Source: Candidatus Hydrogenedentota bacterium
Lineage (GTDB): Bacteria > Hydrogenedentota > Hydrogenedentia > Hydrogenedentales > SLHB01
Length of the DNA stretch: 64,000 nt
Direction: 5' to 3'
NCBI GenBank assembly: GCA_045863295.1
Contig: BTWA01000031.1
Span: 1-64,000 of the forward strand
How positions within the stretch are numbered: position 1 is the stretch's first letter; each line of letters opens with the position of its first letter. The notes under the pieces are model-generated. The model did not search any database. It was not told where the DNA came from and saw nothing but the letters and a program-made list of their open reading frames with translations. Both the position numbers and the translations under genes were made by a program. This document shows, piece after piece, positions 10,620 through 30,842 of this stretch.

Positions 10620-12965
10620 GTGGTACCGATTCGCGCCGCCGCGCACACCATCGCGGCATGTTTGTTATTTATCGCACTTATCGTATTTCCCGTTTCGTCC
10701 CACGCCGAGGGCACCGAATTGTTCAAGGCCGGATCGCCCCCGGGAACGGCCGAAATCCGGACTACGGAACACGTGATCGAAGAGACTGCAGACGGCATTA
10801 CGTATTTATCCATGGAACCGCAAACCGATCCGTATGAGCCCCGGGAACTGGATTTTTACATCGCTGCTCCGGTTCCGTTTCATGGCCGTATTTTGACGGT
10901 TGAGATTTCGTTTTTGGATCGCGGCGCAGGCGTAATTTCCGTTTCCGCCCGCTCCGGCGATCGCACATTGAAACAAACTCACCAAGCCTCGTATACCCGA
11001 TTGAATACGGGAACGTCCCGTAGCGCCTGGTTTGCCTTTCAGTTGCCTCCCAAAGGGAACCCCGGCGACGCCGTTACCCTATCCATTCAAGGGGTGCAGT
11101 ATTTGCAGTCAATCCACGCACACGCGCCGCTGGATCCGGCCACGTGGGACTCGATACGCGCGGCGATCCCCAAAGACGTGACACCTCTGGTTACATTACA
11201 ACGGCCAATGGAACTTGTAACGTCCGCGGGGGTGGACGTGCGGGGAGGAACCAATACACTCGAAGATTCGCTGAATAATCTGGCCGATTTGGCGCCGCTT
11301 GCGCGTCTGCTCGGGTTCACGGCGGTGGAAAGTTACGTGACGTGGAAGCGATTGGAGCCGGAAGTGGAAGGCCAATTCGATTTCGCGTTTTACGACGCCA
11401 TTGTCAACAAGCTGGCTGAGTATGATTTGAAGTGGTTTCCGTTGCTCATTGTGGGATCGGCCTATGCCCTGCCAGATTGGTTCATCGGCGGCGCGGAAGA
11501 TGTCGGATTCGTCTGTCTGGAGCACGGCATCGAAAATCCGATTCAAAGCATTTGGAGCCCTTATCACCAGCGGCATGTGACCCGCGTGTTGCAGGCGTTC
11601 GGCGCGCACTACGAACCCATGGGCGTGTTGCAGGGCGTGCGGCTCGGGCCGAGCGGCAACTACGGCGAATCGCAGTACCCCGCCGGGGGAAATTGGTCGC
11701 CCGAAGGCCAGGAGATGCACATCCATATCGGCATGTGGGCGGCGGATGCCTATGCGATACAGGATTTTCGCGCGGCGATGCGGGCGAAGTACACCACCGT
11801 GGATTCACTCAACACGGCATGGGAAACGCGCTACACAACGTTTGACGAAGTGCCCGTCATGGTGCCGCAATTCATCCGCGTGCCCCGGCAGCGGCTGGAC
11901 ACGGCACAATGGTATACCGACAGCATGTCGGAGTGGTGCGCCTGGTGGGTAAACGAATCCGCGAAGGCCTTACCCCATACGCCCATTTACCAGTCTGCCG
12001 GAGGCTGGGGATTTCTCGAAGGCGGCACGGACTATGTCGCGCAGACGGCGGCCATGGTGCCCGTGGGGGGCGGCATCCGGCTGACCAATGAAACCGATAG
12101 TTTCGAGCAGAATTTTTATGTGACGCGTCTGGCCGCGACGGCGGCGCGTTTGCTTGGCACCGGGTTAGGCTACGAACCCGCAAGCTCGCACACGGCGCGT
12201 GGTACCGTGGGCCGTGTGTTTCACACGGCCACGACCAACGGCGACCACTTCTTTACCTATTTCCACAACATCATGAACCAGCCTATGAGCATTGACAAGT
12301 GGATCGAGTATGCGAACGTACTTGATTTGAGGCAGGATCCCGTGGTCGAGGTGGCCGTCTACTATCCGGAAACCATGAACCGGCTGGACGACGGCACCTT
12401 CCGGCATTTGTACGCAGGGGGATTTTACCCGCGCGCGCGGGAAGTTCGCCGCGTGGTCGACGTGGACTATCTGGATGAAACGCTGATACGGGATGGATAT
12501 CTCGAACGATACAAGGTGCTTGTATTCTGTTGGGGAAACTACATCGAAAGCGACGTGCTTGCCGCCATTGATGCCTGGGTGCAGAAGGGGGGCGTCGTGG
12601 TCTATCCGTCGTTTCCACGCGGCGATCTACAGACCATCGAAGGAAAAACCAAAGTTTTCGCCGCTTGGACGGCTGGTAAAACCGGGCAAGGTTCGTTCCA
12701 TCGTTTTCCCGGCGATATGGAACCGCCAAGCCTTTACGGCGACTACCTCCGAAAAGTGCTACGACGCACAAGCGTCCTGAATCCGCTGACCTCCCTAGTG
12801 ATCCAATACGAAATGCCCGAACACGTGTTCGTCGTCGTTCAGGCCGACGGTCATGCATTGGCGCTCAATTACTCGGAAACGGACCAAGAGTTGGATTTAG
12901 GGGGAACGAAGACGGCGATCCCTTCCTACGGAATTGCCCGGGTTCCCTTGACTGCAGTTCCATAA
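10620..12965 (+). CDS. Secreted glycoside hydrolase, GH14/GH42-like TIM barrel with a trimerisation-like C-terminal domain
   Basis: Signal peptide; ESYVTWKRLEP..GQFDFAFYD; GVRLGPSGNYGESQYP; KYTTVDSLNTAW; LERYKVLVF...WVQKGGVVV. GTG 10620 follows an AAGGGGG RBS. Confidence 0.65.
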   Translation: MVPIRAAAHTIAACLLFIALIVFPVSSHAEGTELFKAGSPPGTAEIRTTEHVIEETADGITYLSMEPQTDPYEPRELDFYIAAPVPFHGRILTVEISFLDRGAGVISVSARSGDRTLKQTHQASYTRLNTGTSRSAWFAFQLPPKGNPGDAVTLSIQGVQYLQSIHAHAPLDPATWDSIRAAIPKDVTPLVTLQRPMELVTSAGVDVRGGTNTLEDSLNNLADLAPLARLLGFTAVESYVTWKRLEPEVEGQFDFAFYDAIVNKLAEYDLKWFPLLIVGSAYALPDWFIGGAEDVGFVCLEHGIENPIQSIWSPYHQRHVTRVLQAFGAHYEPMGVLQGVRLGPSGNYGESQYPAGGNWSPEGQEMHIHIGMWAADAYAIQDFRAAMRAKYTTVDSLNTAWETRYTTFDEVPVMVPQFIRVPRQRLDTAQWYTDSMSEWCAWWVNESAKALPHTPIYQSAGGWGFLEGGTDYVAQTAAMVPVGGGIRLTNETDSFEQNFYVTRLAATAARLLGTGLGYEPASSHTARGTVGRVFHTATTNGDHFFTYFHNIMNQPMSIDKWIEYANVLDLRQDPVVEVAVYYPETMNRLDDGTFRHLYAGGFYPRAREVRRVVDVDYLDETLIRDGYLERYKVLVFCWGNYIESDVLAAIDAWVQKGGVVVYPSFPRGDLQTIEGKTKVFAAWTAGKTGQGSFHRFPGDMEPPSLYGDYLRKVLRRTSVLNPLTSLVIQYEMPEHVFVVVQADGHALALNYSETDQELDLGGTKTAIPSYGIARVPLTAVP

Positions 12966-19050: not shown

Positions 19051-21609
19051 TTAAGGGGTGGGATCCGGCGCGGCAGGCGTTTCGGGTTCGACCGGTTGAG
19101 GGAAGACCGTGCCGTCCGGCGAAACGACTTCCTGGTTCTCGGGCAATACGGGCACGAACGGACGGCTGGCTTCGAAGTCCGCGCGTAAGCCCGCTTCCAT
19201 GGCCGCCTCCGACACGTCCGTCACGAACCGTGCCGGCGCATTGGGATGCGCGCGCACAATGACGGTGGGTTTGACTTTACCGGCCGCTGCCTCGAAGAAA
19301 CGCTTGCGCAGAGCCTCCAACGTGACAAGGTGGCCTTCGGAATACAGCGTTCCCGCCTCGCCGATGGATACGCTGATTTCATTCGCGTTGCCCGTAATCT
19401 TCTGTTCCATGCGCTGCCAGACGTTCTTCTGCGAACGGCGAAGTTCGTCCGCCGCGTCTGCATCTACCTGGGCGATGGTAGTAGCCTCGGGCTGCGTGAA
19501 TTCATCCACAATAGTGGGCGTGATGAAGATAATCAGTTCCCGTTCCTGATTGTCCCGCGAGGTCGTCTTGAACAAGCGGCCCACCAGGGGTATATCGCCA
19601 AGCACCGGCACGCGATCGACGTCATTGCCAATGCTCGTGGCGCGCAGACCGCCAATTACAATGGTCTGGCCGTCGCGCACAAGAATCTGTGTTTCGGCCT
19701 TGCTCTGCGTCTTCTCCGGTACCGTGCTTTCCAGTCCGCCCGCAAGTATGATCTTGTCTTCGGCAGTGCTGTCTTCGGCTTCGATATCCATTAGCACATT
19801 TTCTTCCCCATTAATTCGGGGCAATACTTTCAAAATGGTGCCAACCGGAATGAATTGAATCTGGCCGGGCACCACGCGTCCGGATGCCACATCACTGTTG
19901 TCGTCAACAACCACGCCTTGTGTCGTGTACCCCACGGATTGAAACGCACGATCAGTGGTGTTTTCGAAGATGGCTTCCTGCCCGTCCTGAACCGTCACGC
20001 GCGGGCGGGCCAGTACAGACAACGCACCCTGCCGGTCCAGGTAATTCAGCACCACCGCCACGCGATTGCCCTTGAAATCGGGATCGAGGATGTATTCGGG
20101 ATCGTCCGGTATCGGTGCCGCTTCATTGTTGTTGGCGTCATCCAGGAATTGATACAAACGTCCCCAGCCGTCGCGGTAAAACTCCCGGTAAGGCAATCGG
20201 CCCACGCTAAAGCGTTGCCCCTGCTCAGGCGACGCAGTATAGTCGGGCGTATTCTGGCCGCTCTGAATGGCAAACGGGACTCCGGCAATCTCATCGAAAT
20301 ACGACCAATCGATCCCGAACTCGCGCGTAACGTTCTTTTGCGCCGCCACAAGATAGGCCTCAATCTGCACTTGGCGGCCCTTTACATCCCACGACTGAAT
20401 CATCTGATCGATCTGCGCAATGCGCTCCGGTATGGCCGTTACCGTCACTTGATGAGTCAATTCATTGATGGTGACCGTGCCCATTTCTTCCGGAACCATG
20501 CCCTCCAACCGTTCCAGAACGATTTCCGCGTCCGCGTAGTTCAGAGTCCACGTGCGCGTCTCAAGGGCAACATCCAGCGCTTCCACGACCTCGGCGATCT
20601 GTTCCTGGCGCGAAGGCAAGTCCGTGATTACAAGCGCGTTCACGCGAGGATCCACGTGCGCTACGCCTCGCTCAGACAGCAGGGCCGTCACCGTCTCCAG
20701 CAGCTTGCTTGCCTCCAGATGGTTCAGATTGAACACGCGCGGCGCAAGTGGCACATCCAGTGCGGTTACCGTTTGTTCCATGATTCGGATATTGTCGGCG
20801 GTATCCCAGACAAAAATCTTTCCCGTACGCGGATCCGGCACGATGCGTCCCGTGGAGGAAAGCATCGTCGTTAGAATCGACTGAATGTCCAGCACGTCCG
20901 CGTGGCGGATATCGAACTCGGATTTGACGGTTTCGCCGTATTCGCTGTCCAGGTATTCGGTATCCGTCATTACATACAGAAACCGGTTTGCCTCATCGAA
21001 ATCGTAATACACCCCGTTAAAGCGCAACACTTCCAGCAATTCCTTTGCGTGCGCGCCCTTCAACCAGAAGCGGACCTTTTTCTCTTCGACACCCGGCGAA
21101 GCGACAATGTTCCAACCGGTGGCCTGGGCGATGGCGTCGAGTACTTCGACCACGGGTTTGGGCTCCAGCGCCGCATCCAGATCGACCACGTCTCCTTCAT
21201 CCGGCACCTCGTTGGTCGGAACCGGCCGGTTCAAGATGAGATCCAACGGTCCTACAGTGACCCCAGGCGCCGTTCGGCGCGAACCCGTGACCACGTGGAC
21301 GCCAGCCGGTGGAGTGGGTGTAGCGCCCGGCCCACTTGGGACCGTGGTCGAGGATCCGGTCGATGGAGAAGTTTGCCCACCCGCTGCGTACGGCGTCGGC
21401 GCGACCGTGCCCTGGCTTACCACTTCTAAGACGTTGCTCTGCAATTGCGGTTCAGGATTGGGCTGAACCGGAGTCTGTTGCGCTCCTGCGTAGGGTAAGG
21501 TAAATAGCGCCCCAACAACGAAAAGCGTTCGGTTGAGTGCGAGCTTGCTCAGGGATGTACAACGGATTCGGGTCACGGCCGGCCTATTTCCTTCTTCTAA
21601 ACTGGTCAT
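19051..21609 (-). CDS. gspD: Type II secretion secretin with an extra C-terminal ExbD/TolR-like domain
   Basis: N0 and repeated N domains (DPRTGKIFVWD, DPRVNALVITD); QVQIEAYLV; PRVTVQDGQEA; GQTIVIGGL; VPVLGDIPLVGRLFK; ELIIFITPTIV. Exact start uncertain. Confidence 0.9.
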   Translation of the reverse strand: MTSLEEGNRPAVTRIRCTSLSKLALNRTLFVVGALFTLPYAGAQQTPVQPNPEPQLQSNVLEVVSQGTVAPTPYAAGGQTSPSTGSSTTVPSGPGATPTPPAGVHVVTGSRRTAPGVTVGPLDLILNRPVPTNEVPDEGDVVDLDAALEPKPVVEVLDAIAQATGWNIVASPGVEEKKVRFWLKGAHAKELLEVLRFNGVYYDFDEANRFLYVMTDTEYLDSEYGETVKSEFDIRHADVLDIQSILTTMLSSTGRIVPDPRTGKIFVWDTADNIRIMEQTVTALDVPLAPRVFNLNHLEASKLLETVTALLSERGVAHVDPRVNALVITDLPSRQEQIAEVVEALDVALETRTWTLNYADAEIVLERLEGMVPEEMGTVTINELTHQVTVTAIPERIAQIDQMIQSWDVKGRQVQIEAYLVAAQKNVTREFGIDWSYFDEIAGVPFAIQSGQNTPDYTASPEQGQRFSVGRLPYREFYRDGWGRLYQFLDDANNNEAAPIPDDPEYILDPDFKGNRVAVVLNYLDRQGALSVLARPRVTVQDGQEAIFENTTDRAFQSVGYTTQGVVVDDNSDVASGRVVPGQIQFIPVGTILKVLPRINGEENVLMDIEAEDSTAEDKIILAGGLESTVPEKTQSKAETQILVRDGQTIVIGGLRATSIGNDVDRVPVLGDIPLVGRLFKTTSRDNQERELIIFITPTIVDEFTQPEATTIAQVDADAADELRRSQKNVWQRMEQKITGNANEISVSIGEAGTLYSEGHLVTLEALRKRFFEAAAGKVKPTVIVRAHPNAPARFVTDVSEAAMEAGLRADFEASRPFVPVLPENQEVVSPDGTVFPQPVEPETPAAPDPTP

Positions 21610-21656: not shown

Positions 21657-22145
21657 TTAGCGCTGCCGGGGTAATTGGATCGTGTACTCCACCCCCAAGT
21701 GTTGCTGCGAAAAAATGACCCCGTCCCCAAGTATCTCCTTGATGACACAACCGCGAACCGACTCGCCCACCCGCAGATATTCGCCACGGGGATTGTCAGG
21801 CTGTACGATCAATACCCGCAAGTCCGACCCACTTCCCATCTGCGCACGCTTGGCAATCACGTCTTTCAAGATGGCCGCAAGATCGGGCGGCGGAGCCACC
21901 GTCTGTGGAGGCGGAATCAATGAATCCCATAAACCGGGTTTGGCATTGAGCGCCGTCCGCATGGCGGCGAAATCGACATTTCGTTCGTCGCCTTCGTCCA
22001 TAGCCGGAGGCGTCACCTGATCGAGCGTCGAAAGATACACGTTGCGTTGCGCGCGAACAGGATTCCACAGGGCCACATACGCGCCCAGTACGGCGATAAG
22101 AGCCAATGTGCCAAATCCAATTCGTCCCAACAGAGCGGATCTCAT
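21657..22145 (-). CDS. GspC/PilP-like T2SS component
   Basis: N-terminal TM and a C-terminal HR-like beta domain (YLRVGESVRGCVIKEILGDGVIF); lies between gspM-like and gspD. Confidence 0.6.
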   Translation of the reverse strand: MRSALLGRIGFGTLALIAVLGAYVALWNPVRAQRNVYLSTLDQVTPPAMDEGDERNVDFAAMRTALNAKPGLWDSLIPPPQTVAPPPDLAAILKDVIAKRAQMGSGSDLRVLIVQPDNPRGEYLRVGESVRGCVIKEILGDGVIFSQQHLGVEYTIQLPRQR

Positions 22146-23206
22146 GGTTTCCCCTCGGCCAGCACATTCACCCGATCCAGGGTAACGGCCGTTCCTGCTT
22201 GTTCAATAACGATCACGGGAACCGCAAGGCTGACACCGTTTCCGGCAGGCACGTTAAAGCGCAATCGGTATCGGTAGAGTTTTCCATCGTTCTTCATGGG
22301 CATGCCGCCCTCAAACGCCTTCAGCGTGAACGCGTCCTGCAGTTCAAGGCGCGCCGTCCCGGTGACAGCCGCATCAACGTCGATCGTCAGCGACACATCG
22401 GGGGGTGCCTCCACAATTTGATAGATGGCGGCGCCTGCGCTCAGCGCCTTGAAATGCGCGGCCTGCGATCCTTCGGAGTAGGTGGACTTGTCCCGTGTCG
22501 CTTCGCAGGCTGGCGCGTTCCACGAGGGAAACTGCGCGGCCACATCATCCCAGGATTCAAACCCTCCGTTGACGGCGAGGTTCTCAACTTCGTTTACCTC
22601 GGGAGCAGTAGTCGCGTCTGATTTACTGTCGATGATGGTACGCGTCACCGTGATCTGGGCGGTTACCAGTTTTTCCAGCGGCTGGCGGGTCAATACGAGG
22701 TTGTCGATACGAAATGCCTGCGAACTTTGCATCAGCCGTTGCAGGAACTCGACGAGGTTGCGCAAATCGGTCGGCTCGGTGCGGAACGAGACTTGATACG
22801 CGCGATACCCAAGGCCGGACGTGTCCATTATGCCTCGAGGCATTTGCCGGATTTCGACCAACTGCGATCCCGGCGCCGGCTGCGTTTCCGAGGCAGTGGG
22901 AGAGAGGTCGCGCATGGCAAGGCGGGCGATTTCCCGGCGCAACCGATCGTGTATCTCTTCTTCGGTCCAAACGCTGGAGTGCTGCTCGGCCATCGCGTTG
23001 TATTGACGATCGACCACCTCGGACAGGAGCGCCTGTTCCGAGTAGAACAAGAGATCCTGCTGTTTCTGCAGAATGGTTTCGTCCAACTCGCCGATCACAG
23101 ACAGGCATCGCAACACAATCAATGCACCGGCCGCGGACACCAGGACGCCCGCCGTCACCATGGCGAGCCGCTGCTCGCGATCGGAAAGCTTATTCCACCA
23201 CGTCAT
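22142..23206 (-). CDS. gspM: GspM-like protein fused to a CBM4/9-like beta-sandwich
   Basis: Typical GspM start WWNKLSDREQRL, TM, ferredoxin-like LVEFLQRL..FRIDNLVL; then ENLAVNGGFESW...LDRVNV. Confidence 0.7.
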   Translation of the reverse strand: MTWWNKLSDREQRLAMVTAGVLVSAAGALIVLRCLSVIGELDETILQKQQDLLFYSEQALLSEVVDRQYNAMAEQHSSVWTEEEIHDRLRREIARLAMRDLSPTASETQPAPGSQLVEIRQMPRGIMDTSGLGYRAYQVSFRTEPTDLRNLVEFLQRLMQSSQAFRIDNLVLTRQPLEKLVTAQITVTRTIIDSKSDATTAPEVNEVENLAVNGGFESWDDVAAQFPSWNAPACEATRDKSTYSEGSQAAHFKALSAGAAIYQIVEAPPDVSLTIDVDAAVTGTARLELQDAFTLKAFEGGMPMKNDGKLYRYRLRFNVPAGNGVSLAVPVIVIEQAGTAVTLDRVNVLAEGKP

Positions 23207-24683
23207 CGGAGCCTTCCTCGCCCTCTTCTTGAGCAGACGCATCGTCCTTGGGAAACGGCATCACGATTTCGTAATCGAACACCTGCTGGCCGTACTCCTG
23301 ATCGGCGCGCCACGGGCCGGTGCTGGCCTGGCTCAAACGCGGCATGGATTCCAAACCGATGCGGCGTAATTCCGCCGCAAGATTGTCGGCACTGCCGGTG
23401 TAACCGGTGCGTCCCCGGAGCCGGGCTTCCTCGCCGTGCGTGTACGAGAACTCCGTGATATTCATGCCGCCTGGCATTTGATCGGAAATGACCGACAGAA
23501 TTTCGAGCGCGGACCCTTTGCGATCCAGGTGTTGTTTCAACCGCATCAGCTGTTTGCGCTTGGAAGTTACGTCGTCGGCAATAGGCTGCACAGCGTCGAT
23601 TCGGCTCTGCAACTCCGCAATGTACGCACTGCGCTGGTAGACCGCATATCCGTAAACGCACCCCAGCGCGAGCACGTTTGCCAAAACGGTCAACGCCGCT
23701 CTTGTCACGATGCGCCGGGCGGCCAACTGCCGGCGTACGCGAAGCAGCGACGCAGGCACAAGGCTGATGCGGATAGGGGATCGATCCTGTGCCGCCACGG
23801 CCGCCCCCAGGGATACCATGGGCAGCAGTCCGCCTACGGCATCCGTATGGGACATCAACGTTTGCGCAAAGCGCGCGGGGGCCACCTCCAAACCCGTAAT
23901 GCCAGCCAGGGCATCCGCGATCCCACCGACTTGCACACAGTCCGAACTGACATAGACGGTATCTACGCCCTGACCGTCTTCCGATTCGCGTCGGTATGCG
24001 GCCAGTGACGTACGCAGTTCCACCGCCAGCTCTTCGATCGCTTCGGCATTGTCCTGCGTGTGTTCCGGCCACGACTGGGCGACTGCAATACCGCGGCTGT
24101 ATTCGACACGGCCGCCATTTAGAATCAAAATCTCAAGGCCGCCTGGCGCCAAATGCACAATGGCAAACCGCTCGTCGTTGCCTTTGCGGCCCTCAATGGC
24201 CGCCGCGGCAAGACACGCGGTGCTGACCAGGATGTGTTCCGCTTCGATGCCGGCTTGGCGCAACCAATCGACTTGTTCTTCCACCGTGTCGCGATGCGCA
24301 AACACGGCGAGGACCCGCGAATGCCCATCGGCCAGGCGCTGCAAAATGGCCTGATCCACGACGATTTCGTTTGCCGGGTAGGGCACGTATTCGCCGGCGC
24401 TCAGCGTGACCATGCCCTTGATTTCATCCGGATCCTGGGAAGGCAGCACGAGCATACGAGAAGTTAGTGTATGGCGCGGAAGCACGAGACACACGTCGTC
24501 CTCCGCAATGCGGTGGGTCTTCGCAAACGCCTTGAATCCGGCCGCTGGACTTGTATCGTCGCCCAGATTTGCGACGGTAAAAGTGGCGGGATCGATACTG
24601 CGGGGCGTGCGCTTCACCCGAAGATGAACCACGCGTCCCGCATCGATCTGCACTATGCTGATTGTATTGGACTTGCGCGCCAC
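23190..24683 (-). CDS. gspL: GspL-like protein (PilM-like cytoplasmic domain, TM, PilN-like periplasmic domain)
   Basis: Actin-like N-domain (SRMLVLPSQD, YVPYPANEIVVD, GRVEYSRGIA), TM, coiled coil, ILSVISDQMPGGMNITEFSY. Confidence 0.75.
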   Translation of the reverse strand: MARKSNTISIVQIDAGRVVHLRVKRTPRSIDPATFTVANLGDDTSPAAGFKAFAKTHRIAEDDVCLVLPRHTLTSRMLVLPSQDPDEIKGMVTLSAGEYVPYPANEIVVDQAILQRLADGHSRVLAVFAHRDTVEEQVDWLRQAGIEAEHILVSTACLAAAAIEGRKGNDERFAIVHLAPGGLEILILNGGRVEYSRGIAVAQSWPEHTQDNAEAIEELAVELRTSLAAYRRESEDGQGVDTVYVSSDCVQVGGIADALAGITGLEVAPARFAQTLMSHTDAVGGLLPMVSLGAAVAAQDRSPIRISLVPASLLRVRRQLAARRIVTRAALTVLANVLALGCVYGYAVYQRSAYIAELQSRIDAVQPIADDVTSKRKQLMRLKQHLDRKGSALEILSVISDQMPGGMNITEFSYTHGEEARLRGRTGYTGSADNLAAELRRIGLESMPRLSQASTGPWRADQEYGQQVFDYEIVMPFPKDDASAQEEGEEGSDDVVE

Positions 24684-24691
24684 GACTAATC

Positions 24692-25657
24692 CTAAAACCC
24701 GCCCGGAATATCGTCCGTGCCTTCAACGCCTTCAGACCACTTGTGGATGACGGCCCCCTCGCCGGTAATTTCAACGACCGCCTTTACTTGCGCGCGTATT
24801 TTCCCTTGCCGCAAGGTGGCAAAGCCTGTCACTGTAAAGAAGCGCGATTCCAGTTTGCAATACCGGCTCAGCGGTGCCAGCCGTTCAGGACTCACCCGGG
24901 TCAGGCCCGAAATGACATCAAAAGAACGAAACCGTCGATCGTCGGCGGTATTCAAATCGCCATCGGGTCCCGATCGGTAGGCGAGAATGGCGCTTACGAT
25001 GTCCGAATCCAGATCGGGAACGGCTTCCAGCACCTCCTCTGAGGCCGTATTCACGTTGATGAGGCCGTCTCCGTACACAGTGAACCGTTCCCGCAGACCC
25101 GGAGAATCTTCCGATCCAAACCACGCGCGATCGGTCACGCCATCGAGATCGCGCACCTCTTCCACGGCGAGAAAAGGCTGGGTCGTATCGTCATCGTCGG
25201 AGAGTGGACCGCTACGCCGCCGCATGATGTCATTCACCGTGGTAAAACTGAGTTCTTCCAGTTCATCCAGTACGTCCTCCGGAGAATCATTCAGCGAGAT
25301 GCGGCTTTCCTCATCGGTAATAACAGCCCTTGCCACGTCGCCGAGATACGATCCGGGATCACCCGGGCGGTACACCTTCAATGCGTTGATTAGGTCCGGA
25401 TGCACCACCGAGACGGGAGGGGGCGTTTCCATATTGAGCGCATCGTATACTCCTTGCAACGCGGCTTGGTTACGCAACAAGGCAACCCCGTAGTTGCAGG
25501 CGCCTGCCGCCATATTGAGGCAACGTACGTGATCGCCGGCCGTGGCCGCGGCGCGATGATCCAGCAACGCGCGATGACCAAACCCCAGGGTCAACACCGT
25601 AAGTACAGCGAGTATCCAGATGACCGAGACCAACGCGAAACCTCGTTGCGCGTTCAC
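24692..25657 (-). CDS. gspK: Minor pseudopilin GspK
   Basis: QRG|FALVSVIWIL, ITDEESRISLN, LINVNTASEEVL, SRFFTV. The GTG start overlaps the gspJ stop (GTGA). Confidence 0.88.
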   Translation of the reverse strand: MNAQRGFALVSVIWILAVLTVLTLGFGHRALLDHRAAATAGDHVRCLNMAAGACNYGVALLRNQAALQGVYDALNMETPPPVSVVHPDLINALKVYRPGDPGSYLGDVARAVITDEESRISLNDSPEDVLDELEELSFTTVNDIMRRRSGPLSDDDDTTQPFLAVEEVRDLDGVTDRAWFGSEDSPGLRERFTVYGDGLINVNTASEEVLEAVPDLDSDIVSAILAYRSGPDGDLNTADDRRFRSFDVISGLTRVSPERLAPLSRYCKLESRFFTVTGFATLRQGKIRAQVKAVVEITGEGAVIHKWSEGVEGTDDIPGGF

Positions 25658-26412
25658 GGTTTCAGTACCTCCGTCTTGCCCAGCATTGGCTCTTCCAAGC
25701 GGGTGGAAGGCCCGTTGACGTTGACAAACGCGGTAAACGTCGTGTCCCCGTCGTCGGCGTTCGGGTCGTACAGCGTGAGCCGCAAGCGAATACCCTGAGG
25801 CATGCCGTCGCCTTCCCCGAGGTGATCCTGCACAATGAACGCAACAGGAACCGGAGGCTGACCCGCCTGAGTGGCATCGGCCTCTTGTTCGAGGTCCGCC
25901 GGGGGTTGCCACAAGTATTCGATACTGAAATCACGCACGCCGTTCGCAAGGTCAAAACTTCGCCGAAGCCCCAGGCGCACACGCGTCCGATCGATCTTGC
26001 CACCTTCCGGCGGGCGCGAAGGCAACGGATCTTCCACCACGCGTTCTTCGCGTACCAGCGTTCGTCCTTTCTGGGTTGCATCGTTTCGCAGCCGGTAGCG
26101 GATCCACAGCACCTGCGCGTCGGAACCTTCGGCGGGATGCATTGGCGGGGTCACCGCGTAAAAAACGAACTCCGAGTCTTCTCCCTCAAACAAATGGGCC
26201 GCGCCGGGCACGAAGTTCTGAAGTTCCCGCGTCATGATGGCCATGGAAGTGCGCGCGTCCTGGTACGTTTGCAGGTTGGCCTCCCCAAGGCGCCAAAGGC
26301 GAATACCCGAACTGAACGCCATATACGCGGCCGTCATCACCAGTGTCAGAATCGACACGGCAACAAGCAGCTCGGCCAGCGTGAAGCCGCTATGGCGTGG
26401 GAGTCGCTGCAT
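25654..26412 (-). CDS. gspJ: Minor pseudopilin GspJ
   Basis: HSG|FTLAELLVAV; C-terminal MPQGIRLRLTL; cluster position. Confidence 0.82.
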   Translation of the reverse strand: MQRLPRHSGFTLAELLVAVSILTLVMTAAYMAFSSGIRLWRLGEANLQTYQDARTSMAIMTRELQNFVPGAAHLFEGEDSEFVFYAVTPPMHPAEGSDAQVLWIRYRLRNDATQKGRTLVREERVVEDPLPSRPPEGGKIDRTRVRLGLRRSFDLANGVRDFSIEYLWQPPADLEQEADATQAGQPPVPVAFIVQDHLGEGDGMPQGIRLRLTLYDPNADDGDTTFTAFVNVNGPSTRLEEPMLGKTEVLKP

Positions 26413-26875
26413 TCGTTCCAGTCTCTCTCGTCCAGATTCGTTCAGGTTGCACCAAGGTTTCCGCGGTGAGTTCATACGGCCGGCCTTGGCGTGTCCAAGT
26501 CACCGTCACGCGCAATCGGCCCAGGAAGCGCACGGGCAAATTGATTTGACCCAAGTGGGGCGGAAGCGTTTGCATGATCGGTGGCGGGTCGAAGGGCACG
26601 CGATCAACCGACCACGTATAGTGGAATCGGCCGTCGGAATCGGAACACACCCCTTTTCCGGAGGTATCCACGGCGATTTTGGGCTCCAGACGCAGACGGC
26701 CCATCACATCCTGCAAATGAAAGGAGGCTTCGGTGTAGTCCCGGGCGAGTGCGCGGGACACCAGCGCCTGGCCCAGTGCGCGGTTCACCGCGATGATGCC
26801 AATGCTCAACACGGCCAGCGCCACAAGCGTCTCAAGCAGTATCCAGCCGCCACGCCTGTCGCGTCGCGTGTTCAT
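26390..26875 (-). CDS. gspI: Minor pseudopilin GspI-like
   Basis: RRGG|WILLETLVALAVL class III signal; FHYTWSV and LRVTVTW strands. Confidence 0.75.
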   Translation of the reverse strand: MNTRRDRRGGWILLETLVALAVLSIGIIAVNRALGQALVSRALARDYTEASFHLQDVMGRLRLEPKIAVDTSGKGVCSDSDGRFHYTWSVDRVPFDPPPIMQTLPPHLGQINLPVRFLGRLRVTVTWTRQGRPYELTAETLVQPERIWTRETGTNAATPTP

Positions 26876-27453
26876 GTGCCTTCCTTGACGGTCAAGCGGC
26901 CTAGCCGGCCTTTGGTCGCGATGGTCAGTATTTTGCGCGGAGCAGTTTCTATCTCGACGGTCGCGTAATCACACGATCCGCTGGGGTAAAATGCGATGTA
27001 GTAAGCATCTCGATCACCGTCCTTGGCGGCCTGCGGTTTTTTCATCTTGAGCGGTTCCGGCAGCGTGCGTCGCTCGCCACCCACTTCTTCCAGGCGTCCA
27101 AACGCTTTCTCGTCTTCGCCGGAGGCGATGCGGCGCATAGCCCAATACGAATTCGTTTCGTCGTCGATGTAAAAGCGATACTCGCGTGAATCGGCGACCG
27201 CGCGTTCCTGACAGTACTTCATCAACGCCACCACGTCCCGCTGATAGCGATCCTTTCGAATCCAGGTAATCGAACCCTGAAAGAGCGGTACGACTCCCGC
27301 GGTGAGGATGGAGATAATGGTCAAAACGACCAGCAGTTCCATCAAGGTGTAACCGCGAATCGCCTTCCATCCAAGTTCCCGCTTGGAAAAGCGTTTGCGA
27401 TACGCATTGCTCGGATCGTCCGCCGTCGGCGCCTGGGTGCATTGCGTGCACAT
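26872..27453 (-). CDS. gspH: Minor pseudopilin GspH-like
   Basis: IRG|YTLMELLVVL and IAFYPSGS. Start uncertain (ATG 27453 chosen). Confidence 0.78.
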   Translation of the reverse strand: MCTQCTQAPTADDPSNAYRKRFSKRELGWKAIRGYTLMELLVVLTIISILTAGVVPLFQGSITWIRKDRYQRDVVALMKYCQERAVADSREYRFYIDDETNSYWAMRRIASGEDEKAFGRLEEVGGERRTLPEPLKMKKPQAAKDGDRDAYYIAFYPSGSCDYATVEIETAPRKILTIATKGRLGRLTVKEGT

Positions 27454-27461
27454 GGCCCGAG

Positions 27462-27839
27462 TCAGTTTTCCGACCACACGGAAATGTCGTCGGGCGTGCC
27501 GGCCTGCCCGTCCATACCCGCGGTAAACAAATCGTACGGGCGGTTCTTGCCCGGAGTTTTGTAGCCATAGGGCCGGCCCCACGGATCATTTTTGATCTGA
27601 ACAACATACTGCTTCTTGCCGTTGACAAGGTCATTCAGTGCCTTCGGATACTGATCGTTGTTCTCTAGCGCATAGGCCTCGATCATGCGCTGATACGTGG
27701 ACAAGTCCGATTTCGCGCGCGTCTCGCGCGCTTCCCGGCCGCGGCCCGCCACGCCAACGGCGACCGCGCCGGCCAAAATGCCGATGATGACCATCACCAG
27801 CAACAACTCAAGTAAGGTAAACCCGCTGTTCGATTTCAT
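27462..27839 (-). CDS. gspG: Major pseudopilin GspG
   Basis: SG|FTLLELLLVMVIIGIL, YALEN..YP, DPWGRPYGY, LFTAGMDGQAGTPDDI. Confidence 0.93.
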   Translation of the reverse strand: MKSNSGFTLLELLLVMVIIGILAGAVAVGVAGRGREARETRAKSDLSTYQRMIEAYALENNDQYPKALNDLVNGKKQYVVQIKNDPWGRPYGYKTPGKNRPYDLFTAGMDGQAGTPDDISVWSEN

Positions 27840-27889
27840 GGTATCCTCCGGAATCACCCGCACGGAACGCGTCCGGGCAAGTCAGTTGC

Positions 27890-29104
27890 TCAAATCTGCA
27901 TTGAACTCATCGTCAACATGGGCAACAACATCGCGATGACCAAAAACCCCACAATAACGCCCATGACCACGATCAATATCGGCTCCATCATCGAGGTCAT
28001 GGCCTTCACGGCCCGGTCCACTTCGATGTCGTACGCGTCCGCCATGCGCTTGGTCACCGCGCCCAGACGACCACTTTCTTCGCCCACCGCAAAGGTGTTC
28101 ACGACAATTGGCGGAAAATAGCGGCATAGTTTTAGCCCCGCGCTGATACTATCGCCTTCCGCCACGCGCGCCTCCACTTTCGCAATTTCCGCCGCTACGG
28201 CTTTGTTGGTCAGCGTCTCCACCGTGATGCGCAACGACTGCAAGATCGGCACACCATTGTCCAGCAACGTGCCCAATGTGCGCGCAAACTGAGCGATCAC
28301 ATACTTGTGCGCCACATTCCCGACAACGGGGACACGCAGGATCTGCCGGTCGATTTGCAGACGTCCAGCCTCGCTCCGCCAATAGGAAACGAAGGCCGAC
28401 ACGGCGAAGCCGATTGCGATAAGTACCGCCCACCAATAGCTGCCCATGAATCCGCATAGCAACATGACCATGCGGGTTGGCAGCGGCAAGGTTTGCTGAA
28501 AGTCCTGGAATACCGTGATGAACTTGGGAAACACGAACGAAAGTAAAATGAAAATGGCAATCGATCCCATCAGCAACAGAAACGCCGGATAAATGGACGC
28601 GGTAGTGGCCTTGCCCCTCAGTTCTTCGTCCTGCTCGCCAAACGCAACGATGCGCCACATGACCTCGTCCAACATGCCTCCGGATTCGCCCGCGTTTATC
28701 AGGCTCACGACCATCGGTGAAAACACCTTCGGATGCCGTTCGAGCGCTTCGGCAAACGTGCTTCCCTTCTGCACGTCGTCACGAATCTGTGCAATAATCG
28801 TTTTCAGTTTGACATGGTCCGACTGCTCTTCCAGCGTGGACAGCGCGCGCGTCAATGGCATGCCCGATTCAAAAAGATTCGCCAATTGCCGAAAGAACAC
28901 ATTGCGGTCTTTGAGCCGGATCCGAGTCAGCTTGTTTCGCAAAACGTCTTTCTTGACCTTGCCTTCAAACTCTTCGACCGAGATGGGAAAATAGCCCAAG
29001 TCCCGCAAGCGCGCCACTGCCGACTGCTGACTGTCGGCCTCGAGAACACCGGTGGAGGGTGCTTCCGTGGGCGATCGCTTTACCTCATACTTGAACTGGG
29101 GCAT
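27890..29104 (-). CDS. gspF: T2SS inner-membrane platform protein GspF
   Basis: FFRQLANLFESGMPL, AGESGGML, YPAFLL, VGEESGRL, MEPILIV. Confidence 0.95.
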   Translation of the reverse strand: MPQFKYEVKRSPTEAPSTGVLEADSQQSAVARLRDLGYFPISVEEFEGKVKKDVLRNKLTRIRLKDRNVFFRQLANLFESGMPLTRALSTLEEQSDHVKLKTIIAQIRDDVQKGSTFAEALERHPKVFSPMVVSLINAGESGGMLDEVMWRIVAFGEQDEELRGKATTASIYPAFLLLMGSIAIFILLSFVFPKFITVFQDFQQTLPLPTRMVMLLCGFMGSYWWAVLIAIGFAVSAFVSYWRSEAGRLQIDRQILRVPVVGNVAHKYVIAQFARTLGTLLDNGVPILQSLRITVETLTNKAVAAEIAKVEARVAEGDSISAGLKLCRYFPPIVVNTFAVGEESGRLGAVTKRMADAYDIEVDRAVKAMTSMMEPILIVVMGVIVGFLVIAMLLPMLTMSSMQI

Positions 29105-30842
29105 GTGCCGCTTCCGGGAAATCCAGCGCGTCCGACTCCGCGGTCACGCGCATGACTTCCTCAAATGTCGTTATTCCGGCGCAAATTCGCGCCCATCCCG
29201 CCTGGCGCAGCGTCCGCATTCCTTCCTGCACGGCCTTTCGCTTGATGATTGTCGAAGCAGCCCGCTCGATGGTCAGTTCCTTGATAGTGCCGGAAAACGG
29301 CAGGATCTCATAGATCGCTACGCGGCCCTTGTAGCCGGTATTGCGGCAAGCGTCACACCCACGGCCCCGGCGGAACGTAATACCTGAAACCGAGGCGCGC
29401 GTCGCCCCGAAATCGCGCAGTAACGTCTCGTCCGGCTCGTAGGCTTCCGAACACTGCTTGCAGATGGTCCGCACCAACCGCTGAGCAACCGACGCTATCA
29501 TGGTGCTTGCGATTAAGAAAGGTTCCACGCCCATATCCGTGAGTCGCGTCACCGCCCCGGCGGCATCGTTGGTATGCAGCGTGCTGAATACCAAGTGGCC
29601 GGTCAGACTCGATCGAATTGCCATTTCCGCCGTTTCAAAGTCCCGGATTTCGCCCACCAGCATGATGTCGGGATCGTGCCGCAGCATGGACCGCAGCGCT
29701 GTGGCGAAGTCGAATCCAATCTGGGGCACGATCTGCATCTGCGAGATGCCCTTCAATTGGTATTCAATGGGATCTTCGACAGTGATGATCTTGTGTTCCA
29801 TGCGGTTGAGTTTGTTCAACGCCGCATACAAGGTGGTGGTTTTACCGCTCCCCGTCGGCCCCGTAACGAGTATCATGCCGTGCGGCCGCGTAATGAACGT
29901 GTTGAAAATCGCAAGGTCGCTCTCGGCAAATCCCAACTGCTCCATCGTCAGAAACATGGAGGAACGATTCAATATGCGTAGATTGACCGTTTCGCCGTGC
30001 GGCGTAGGCAACACCGAAACGCGCAAGTCAAATTGACTGGCGCCCAGTGACGCACGGATCTTGCCGTCCTGCGGAAGGCGCTTTTCCGCGATGTTCAGAT
30101 TCGCCATAACTTTGATGCGCGACACGATGGCGGCATGAAATCCCCTAATCGATGCCGGCGTCGGCACATTGTGGAGAATGCCGTCGATGCGGTACCGGAC
30201 GCGGAGCTCGTCTTCAAACGGCTCCATGTGAATATCGGTCGCACCGGACTGAATCGCTTCCGATAACAGTTCGTTAACGAACTTGATGATGGACGCGTCG
30301 ATGCTGTCGTCGCCCAGGTCGGATCCCGCCGCCGAACCATCGAGTGTCAACACCGTTGCGACGCTGTCGCTGTCGCTGAGAATGCGCTCCACGGTGTCCG
30401 CGCCGACGCCATACAAGGCTTTAATGGCACGCTTGATCTCGTCCGGGGCGGCCACCACCGCCTCCACACGCGTCTTCAACACCATGCGAAGGTCGTCAAG
30501 GAGGTGGTGGTTCAGCGGATCACTGACGGCTACGACGAGCGTTCCGTTCCTTTCCTGCACCGGCACGCAGTTGTAGTGCGTGGCGTAACGCGCGGGCATT
30601 TTCTTTACCAGCGCCGGATCCAACTCTTCCTTGGACGGAGCGACAAACCGCATTTCACAAAAAGCGGCGAGGGCTTTGTACACAGATTCCGCTGTGGCAA
30701 CCCCTGCGGATACCAGCGCACTGGGCAGGTCGCGGCCGGTGGCTGTGCATTCCTGCCGGATGCGGCCCAGCGTTGCCTCATCTACAAGGCCTTCCCGGAC
30801 CAGATGTTTTTCCAAACCTCTCTCGACAGCCAAAAGTGCCAC
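29085..30842 (-). CDS. gspE: T2SS secretion ATPase GspE/PilB family
   Basis: ATDIHMEP, RYRIDG, AEKRLPQDG, Walker A GPTGSGKTT, TVEDPIEY, LRHDPDIMLVGEIRD, TGHLVFSTLHTN, CxxC...CxxC. Confidence 0.96.
   Translation of the reverse strand: MALLAVERGLEKHLVREGLVDEATLGRIRQECTATGRDLPSALVSAGVATAESVYKALAAFCEMRFVAPSKEELDPALVKKMPARYATHYNCVPVQERNGTLVVAVSDPLNHHLLDDLRMVLKTRVEAVVAAPDEIKRAIKALYGVGADTVERILSDSDSVATVLTLDGSAAGSDLGDDSIDASIIKFVNELLSEAIQSGATDIHMEPFEDELRVRYRIDGILHNVPTPASIRGFHAAIVSRIKVMANLNIAEKRLPQDGKIRASLGASQFDLRVSVLPTPHGETVNLRILNRSSMFLTMEQLGFAESDLAIFNTFITRPHGMILVTGPTGSGKTTTLYAALNKLNRMEHKIITVEDPIEYQLKGISQMQIVPQIGFDFATALRSMLRHDPDIMLVGEIRDFETAEMAIRSSLTGHLVFSTLHTNDAAGAVTRLTDMGVEPFLIASTMIASVAQRLVRTICKQCSEAYEPDETLLRDFGATRASVSGITFRRGRGCDACRNTGYKGRVAIYEILPFSGTIKELTIERAASTIIKRKAVQEGMRTLRQAGWARICAGITTFEEVMRVTAESDALDFPEAAHAPVQV

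Follow-up and report, generated by a model that had tools for sequence, protein, structure and literature searches.

What is the periplasmic core of a proton-driven motor protein doing at the end of an outer-membrane channel? The question is raised by a secretin gene in a 64,000-nucleotide stretch of DNA from a Candidatus Hydrogenedentota bacterium (hereafter the window; positions 1 to 64,000 of contig BTWA01000031.1, assembly GCA_045863295.1). The gene occupies 19051..21609 on the minus strand, encodes 852 amino acids plus a stop codon according to the list of open reading frames (ORFs) and its translation, and is the final gene of a complete type II secretion system (T2SS) operon. An earlier note, made from the letters alone, had proposed that this secretin carries a C-terminal ExbD/TolR-like domain. 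Pfam, profile-profile comparison and fold searches bear this out: what the tail contains is a genuine periplasmic domain of the ExbD/TolR type. As for its function, a tentative case can be made for an anchor or scaffold in the cell wall.

The stretches on which the proposal rested, namely the end of the secretin core (ELIIFITPTIV), NEISVSIGEAGTLYSEGHLVTLEALRKRF, PTVIVRAHPNAPARFVTDVSEAAMEAGL and a proline-rich end, are all present in the translation where they had been placed, and the position given for the module, about 19180-19385, is right: the folded core lies at 19171..19386 (minus strand). This core, residues 742-813 (about 72 residues), is supported by Pfam, hhalign, AlphaFold 2 (AF2), Foldseek and VIA-align. 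The Pfam family PF02472 matches residues 738-809 (window 19183-19398) over profile positions 48-119 of 128, scoring 24.0 bits for the whole protein, 26.4 for its last 149 residues and 26.7 when the genome is scanned in all six frames, values that are borderline against the cut-off of 25.4. Profile-profile comparison of six such tails with eight genuine ExbD proteins, four from the genome of the window and four library representatives, gave a probability of 98.6% (E 7.4e-16, 68 columns) and aligned tail residues 41-108 with ExbD residues 57-124 of 134. A profile built from the tail only, searched against 1.84 billion protein representatives, matched 80 at E <= 1e-3, including 51 at E <= 1e-10. 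Among the 41 of these 80 that were scanned with Pfam are four genuine ExbD proteins (132-145 amino acids), reached at E 1e-4 to 9e-4. Within the window genome, this secretin is the only one to match the profile (198.5 bits); below it come a pair of ordinary ExbD genes (E 4e-4 and 8e-3).

The predicted fold leads to the same family, whose periplasmic domain is a mixed sheet with two helices on one face. The AF2 model of the tail, built on a shallow alignment of six sequences, has a mean predicted local distance difference test score (pLDDT) of 70, rising to 84-91 in the core (tail residues 41-112), with the topology β-β-β-α-β-α-β; the disorder that the earlier note had named as a sign against its proposal is thus not seen in the core. 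Searched against the PDB with Foldseek, the model returned the periplasmic domain of Escherichia coli ExbD in all of its top five matches, the best at E 8.2e-5 with a target TM score of 0.78 and a root-mean-square deviation (rmsd) of 2.3 Å over 71 columns; the matches below these are unrelated and a hundredfold weaker. In an independent all-against-all comparison with VIA-align, TolR 5by4 ranked at the top (Z 9.9; rmsd 3.2 over 79 residues) with TolR 2jwk next (Z 7.5), both ahead of the best unrelated chain (Z 6.6) and of ExbD 2pfu (Z 5.3). ExbD and TolR therefore head both fold searches. A homodimer prediction for two copies of the module (tail-alignment residues 36-125), run without controls, scored 0.22 against a mark of 0.42, a result that speaks neither for nor against a dimer.

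Several results weigh against this identification. Besides the borderline Pfam score of the window protein, only one of 21 related secretin representatives has a PF02472 match at E <= 1e-3, and at 21.9 bits it is below threshold. When the PDB was searched with sequence profiles of the tails, built from 6 and then from 31 sequences, no ExbD or TolR chain came up; the only matches were noise, namely ribosomal protein L16 (E 0.27) and a solute-binding protein (E 1.1). All 21 scanned secretin-type representatives have the Secretin domain and 20 of them Secretin_N, the exception being a 454-amino-acid fragment. Since the tails of these secretins mostly escape PF02472, routine annotation misses the fusion.

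The remainder of the protein has the layout of a secretin. Its Secretin domain (PF00263; beta-barrel and gate) covers residues 524-702 (window 19504..20040, minus strand) with 144 bits and E 4.5e-42, and the genome scan gives the same coordinates. Upstream lies the periplasmic N-domain region, residues ~144-523 (20041..21180, minus strand; the boundaries of the whole region are estimated), with three stretches of Secretin_N (PF03958; 122.9 bits), the best at residues 232-287. The nearest NCBIfam models are GspD TIGR02517 (209 bits, cut-off 351.35) and PilQ (200.8 bits, cut-off 284.35), both below cut-off; judged by its sequence, the protein is a divergent member of the type II secretion/type IV pilus kind. 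No AMIN, SPOR, LysM or OmpA-like profile matched it at E <= 1.

Downstream of the barrel, a junction motif, DEFTQPEA (residues 702-709), leads into a linker helix (708-739), the two together spanning 19393..19506 (minus strand) as defined by the AF2 model and by conservation. The helix comprises tail residues 7-38, about 32 residues, is predicted at low confidence (pLDDT 51-59), and contains three basic, near-invariant residues, R724, K728 and R733. The module follows, with a conserved R-x-H-P-x-A-P loop (residues 786-792) between its strand 4 and helix 2. Directly after it comes a PFVP motif (residues 817-820; 19150..19161, minus strand), recognized by its conservation in 31 tails, and then the proline-rich C-terminal tail (residues 821-852; 19054..19149, minus strand), which is predicted to be disordered (pLDDT 50-64, no secondary structure) and differs in length and sequence among relatives. 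At the other end of the protein, in the region of residues 1-60 (window 21481..21609 and downstream), an A-Q-Q-x-P-x-x-P-x-P-x-P motif follows a signal-peptide-like hydrophobic stretch; its A, Q, Q and four P are invariant in six of six aligned secretins, and a variable low-complexity region comes next.

Of ExbD and TolR, the module retains the periplasmic core only. The transmembrane helix of ExbD, with its proton-binding aspartate, is absent: the matches begin at Pfam position 48 and ExbD residue 57, and what lies ahead of the module is the secretin barrel followed by a soluble helix. Also absent is the N-terminal swap strand (ExbD residues 44-49; beta-1 of TolR), where the tail has a helix; the I-x-V-x-L-P consensus of the ExbD alignment is upstream of the aligned region. 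The last beta-strand is kept in the AF2 model (tail residues 108-112). According to PMC12204202, the proton-binding aspartate of the ExbD membrane helix is essential, and in PMC10771500 and PMC4646322 the N-terminal strand is described as swapping between protomers in closed ExbD and TolR dimers. With neither the membrane helix nor the swap strand, the module by itself is not a proton-driven stator, and the protein is a secretin containing an ExbD/TolR periplasmic domain, not an ExbD or TolR protein.

The tail is widespread in the lineage. A word-indexed search with it found five other secretins (803-839 amino acids; tail identity 43-47%); those of the five that are named come from metagenome-assembled genomes of Hydrogenedentes, and one has a precomputed PF02472 match. 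Spread was measured with the tail profile over 135 genomes of Hydrogenedentota at E <= 1e-8. The tail occurs in 118 of the 135, among them 80 of the 86 genomes of high quality, and is represented in 57 of 66 genera and in 13 of 15 families; absence from orthologs, another sign that the earlier note had listed against itself, is accordingly not what these genomes show. It is nearly always single-copy, in frames of ~775-1180 amino acids. In genome G125 the tail occurs in two secretin frames, of 845 and 839 amino acids, that lie about 2.6 kb apart on the same strand (G125:C27:8360-8740 and 10988-11371) and are apparently a tandem duplication. In the 31 tails drawn from across the families, with a conserved position defined as one kept in at least 90% of them, the conserved positions fall into four clusters: D1, T4, P6 and E7 of the junction; the basic helix residues R23, K27 and R32; the hairpin residues E43, G49, G52 and G58; and the R-x-H-P-x-A-P loop, along with P116 and V118.

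All 13 positive families belong to the order of the window genome, and the tail is confined to that order. In one genus, g30, none of eight genomes is positive, and the best secretin match in the three genomes checked is only 26-28% identical, so that the ortholog itself, rather than its tail, seems to be missing. Probable orthologs in representatives of two other orders (G001 and G002; 37-42% identical) stop about 60 residues past the secretin domain, without the module. The one in G002 (L057, G002:C86) has a short tail that ends in PFVP followed by arginines, which implies that the motif predates the module and may have a role of its own. Most simply, the module would have been inserted at the base of one order, ahead of PFVP and behind a linker that was already present.

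This record bears on the most deflationary account, in which the tail would resemble ExbD by chance or be a decaying remnant without function. The borderline Pfam score and the failure of sequence searches to reach a PDB entry speak for it. Against it stand the hhalign E-value, the agreement of two fold searches, and the retention of the tail in 118 of 135 genomes, where particular positions are invariant and most frames are intact. Conservation and the profile-profile result effectively refute this account, to which we assign almost no weight.

The function that we favour, while granting it somewhat less than an even chance, is that of a built-in peptidoglycan-contacting anchor or scaffold acting in cis. 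The secretin ring would carry one module per subunit, suspended outside the channel and level with the cell wall, and the modules would contact the glycan strands of peptidoglycan in the manner of the truncated TolR core and of open-state ExbD; this contact would anchor, position or scaffold the channel. The module does not itself turn the proton motive force into work, as it has no membrane helix with a proton-binding aspartate and no ExbB partner gene. PMC4646322 reports that truncated TolR(60-133), but not TolR(36-142), pulls down sacculi, and PMC10771500 that ExbD transiently binds peptidoglycan glycan chains after its N-terminal strand unfolds. Scaffolding of a T2SS secretin in the cell wall is described for GspB/OutB in PMC9239104.

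Evidence from the phylum is consistent with such a role. Both secretins checked from genus g17, as well as the library proteins P0009 and P0090, continue after the module into a proline-rich linker and then a SPOR domain, which scores 27.4-36.3 bits (cut-off 21); this suggests that the secretin C-terminus works in the cell-wall zone. The type IV pilus secretin PilQ of the window genome carries an AMIN domain, and in-cis wall-binding modules on secretins are thus in use in this organism. The PulS/OutS pilotin family (PF09691) has no match in the window genome; nor has GspB above cut-off, in a weak search whose control matched 0 of 14 reference genomes. The SPOR addition, the AMIN domain of PilQ and the lack of a pilotin or GspB match together lead us to favour the wall anchor.

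Other considerations count against it. We know of no peptidoglycan-binding residues defined for ExbD or TolR. The retained last strand looks, by its position after helix 2, like the strand deleted from the peptidoglycan-binding TolR construct, so that the module is not an exact copy of truncated TolR. The SPOR addition in one genus also admits the opposite reading, that the module by itself may bind the wall too poorly. The place assumed for the C-terminus of the secretin with respect to the wall is carried over from GspD structures. Finally, the interaction of ExbD with peptidoglycan is, in PMC10771500, weak and transient.

The retained last strand can also be read differently. The module may be an adaptor whose free edge strand recruits a proline-flanked strand of a periplasmic partner and so ties the secretin to it, the partner being an inner-membrane T2SS component such as the product of orf162, the gene directly upstream, or the periplasmic part of a TolQR/ExbBD-type motor. 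ExbD itself recruits the proline-flanked D-box of TonB onto residues 130-134, its last strand (PMC10907165), and according to the same paper and the sources on wall contact (PMC4646322, PMC10771500) the activities of ExbD/TolR periplasmic domains comprise dimerization, capture of a beta-strand and contact with peptidoglycan. In the modelled tail, the last strand (tail residues 108-112) is kept while the swap strand that pairs with it in ExbD/TolR dimers is gone. The genome has ExbD genes and MotA/ExbB-type channels, four of each, yet no TonB, and hence has motors with unassigned clients. Against this, the partner strand is hypothetical, clamping of the D-box by ExbD requires a dimer, and the operon contains no motor gene; moreover, short linkers keep the periplasmic domains of ExbD and TolR close to the inner membrane (PMC10907165), far from the secretin C-terminus. 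Strand capture is on this balance possible but unlikely. A somewhat smaller probability goes to an assembly aid that replaces the S-domain and its pilotin, in which helix and module would pack on their neighbours and stabilize or target the multimer without touching wall or motor. The module sits where GspD has its S-domain, the PulS/OutS pilotin was not detected in the genome, and hardly any variation is seen in the junction motif or in the three basic residues of the helix. In addition, the module-less orthologs of the two other orders retain a helix-like linker, and one of them PFVP, which suggests an older C-terminal function to which the module was later joined. Yet the existence of those same orthologs indicates that the module is dispensable for basic assembly, outer-membrane targeting is not among the known features of ExbD/TolR domains, and the SPOR addition points to the wall.

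The remaining alternative concerns the motor. The earlier note had suggested that the channel binds peptidoglycan or pairs with ExbD/TolR/TonB-type motor parts; the former is plausible in the light of the TolR and ExbD literature and of the SPOR domains, and pairing with TonB is disfavoured. Neither TonB_C nor a TonB-dependent receptor barrel was detected in the window genome, which is 96% complete and has, beside its ExbD genes and channels, TolB. Across the phylum, only 9 of the 135 genomes have a TonB_C match above cut-off, and 16 have one at E <= 1e-3, compared with 118 that have the tail. A divergent TonB could escape the TonB_C model, yet canonical TonB is unlikely to be generally required, and we reject a TonB link as the general explanation. 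A version without TonB is conceivable, in which the secretin would be a direct outer-membrane client of an ExbBD/TolQR-type motor that couples the proton motive force to assembly or gating of the channel. The module would then stand in for one protomer of the ExbD/TolR dimer, or capture the unfolded N-terminal strand of that dimer, at the wall layer. We regard this as distinctly improbable. Type II secretion is reported to depend on the proton motive force, and a motor client, if real, would supply a mechanism for that dependence and a function for ExbBD motors in TonB-less lineages. A candidate gene block combining a secretin with ExbBD in the window genome (L035, G000:C28:64000-83900) was considered and rejected. 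It consists of an ExbB-ExbD-TPR-VWA row without TonB, then a GHMP-kinase gene, then a PilM...PilO...PilQ cluster with the AMIN secretin; the motor row and PilMNOPQ are separate units with the kinase gene between them. The row recalls the motor-linked vWA force transducers discussed in PMC12204202.

The operon to which the secretin belongs runs along the minus strand in the order GspE, GspF, GspG, three pseudopilin-like genes, GspK, a PilM/GspL-like gene, a GspM-like gene, orf162 and the secretin; the gene that follows encodes an unrelated short-chain dehydrogenase. The secretion ATPase GspE (29085..30842) is identified by Pfam T2SSE (440 bits) and MshEN (80.6 bits), the platform protein GspF (27890..29104) by T2SSF (206 bits), and the major pseudopilin GspG (27462..27863) by T2SSG (57.2 bits) and N_methyl (34.9 bits). 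The three pseudopilin-like genes (25654..27582) all match N_methyl, two above the cut-off and one below it (16.7 bits), and the GspK-like minor pseudopilin (24692..25912) matches T2SSK at 25 bits, with a cut-off of 24.2. The GspL/PilM-like protein (497 amino acids; 23190..24683) matches PilM_2 at 33.9 bits, and the GspM-like protein (366 amino acids; 22142..23242) matches T2SSM at 32.6 bits over residues 13-70; each is syntenic in five of five relatives. The long C-terminal extension of the GspM-like protein gives a weak match to NTTRR-F1 (18.6 bits, cut-off 70).

Between the GspM-like gene and the secretin lies orf162 (21657..22145), conserved directly upstream of the secretin and encoding 162 amino acids with an N-terminal hydrophobic helix. 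It matches no family in Pfam or NCBIfam. The window operon has no gene matching Pfam T2SSC, and orf162 occupies its place; from this gene position we infer a GspC/PilP-like role. The order of the GspK, L-like, M-like, orf162 and secretin genes is kept in all five related loci that have an upstream flank. The genome, in 88 contigs, has seven secretin-domain matches above cut-off. A Pfam GspC match on contig C1 lies about 2.5 kb upstream of another secretin-domain match, and this locus looks like a second, more canonical T2SS. No ExbB/TolQ gene is present in the operon, and the four PF01618 matches of the genome are on contigs C8, C28, C4 and C35, none on C31.

Compared with known systems, the window module shares a periplasmic location with ExbD and TolR (PF02472; PDB 8P9R, 8VGC, 8PEK, 2PFU, 5BY4, 2JWK) but differs from them in having no transmembrane helix, swap strand or ExbB/TolQ partner gene, and in its attachment to the C-terminal end of an outer-membrane secretin. 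It also has its invariant R-x-H-P-x-A-P loop where the aligned ExbD proteins have R-A-D-K-like residues. The secretin resembles those of the GspD type in its Secretin and Secretin_N domains and in closing an operon that also encodes GspE, F, G and K along with L-like and M-like proteins. In proteobacterial GspD the C-terminus is an S-domain that binds the pilotin; the window secretin, by contrast, scores below the NCBIfam equivalog cut-off, ends in a helix and an ExbD-type module, and comes from a genome in which no PulS/OutS was found. Like PilQ with AMIN, it would be a secretin bearing its own cell-wall-directed module, given that wall binding is an inferred property here, although AMIN is N-terminal and of an unrelated fold. 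The job proposed for the module, scaffolding a secretin in the wall, is that of GspB/OutB (PMC9239104). GspA/ExeA and TsaP are likewise separate anchors of secretins, but all of these act in trans through HR, LysM or PG_binding domains, whereas the candidate anchor described here lies within the secretin polypeptide.

Other ExbD modules without a membrane anchor were also reached by the tail profile. They resemble the window module in lacking the membrane helix and differ from it in partners and domain order; PF02472 recognizes them at 35-278 bits, while it mostly misses the secretin tails. Examples include FecR with 3-8 tandem ExbD domains, M56 peptidase with ExbD and Secretin, and M56 with TonB_C and ExbD. 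Nine proteins (P0056, P0057, P0058, P0059, P0061, P0062, P0067, P0069 and P0071) carry 3-8 tandem anchor-less ExbD domains; FecR is above cut-off in four of them, and one comes from Candidatus Methylacidiphilales. P0080 (1047 amino acids) and P0085 (1551 amino acids; also with Secretin_N) combine M56 peptidase, ExbD and Secretin in one chain, joining an inner-membrane domain and an outer-membrane secretin with ExbD modules in between. The window genome itself contains an ORF of more than 800 amino acids (L005, G000:C11:86806-90072; locus positions 28-2430) with an M56/BlaR1-type HELSH region, an anchor-less ExbD domain (42.7 bits) and, by eye, Ig-like repeats, a second and unrelated use of the ExbD periplasmic module.

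The literature searched, with subscription-only papers outside its coverage, contained no description of a secretin-ExbD/TolR fusion and no relevant paper on type II secretion in Hydrogenedentes, in agreement with the earlier note, whose author knew of no such fusion. The word "secretin" occurs 0 times in PMC12204202, a paper on the evolution of force transducers. What is new is a secretin with a new C-terminal module and, equally, an ExbD/TolR core in a new setting.

Secretins must cross the cell wall and be held in it, a task for which either separate helper proteins or N-terminal AMIN domains are known to serve. To these, a secretin with the core of a motor protein's periplasmic domain would add a third solution, one that is kept across almost the whole of an order in an uncultured phylum. 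The architecture is largely invisible in routine annotation, with most of its members escaping the Pfam ExbD model. Should the secretin prove to be the client of a motor, type II secretion would be linked mechanically to a proton-driven machine. As a natural truncated ExbD/TolR domain, the module also allows this core to be studied without its motor, whether in wall binding or in strand capture.

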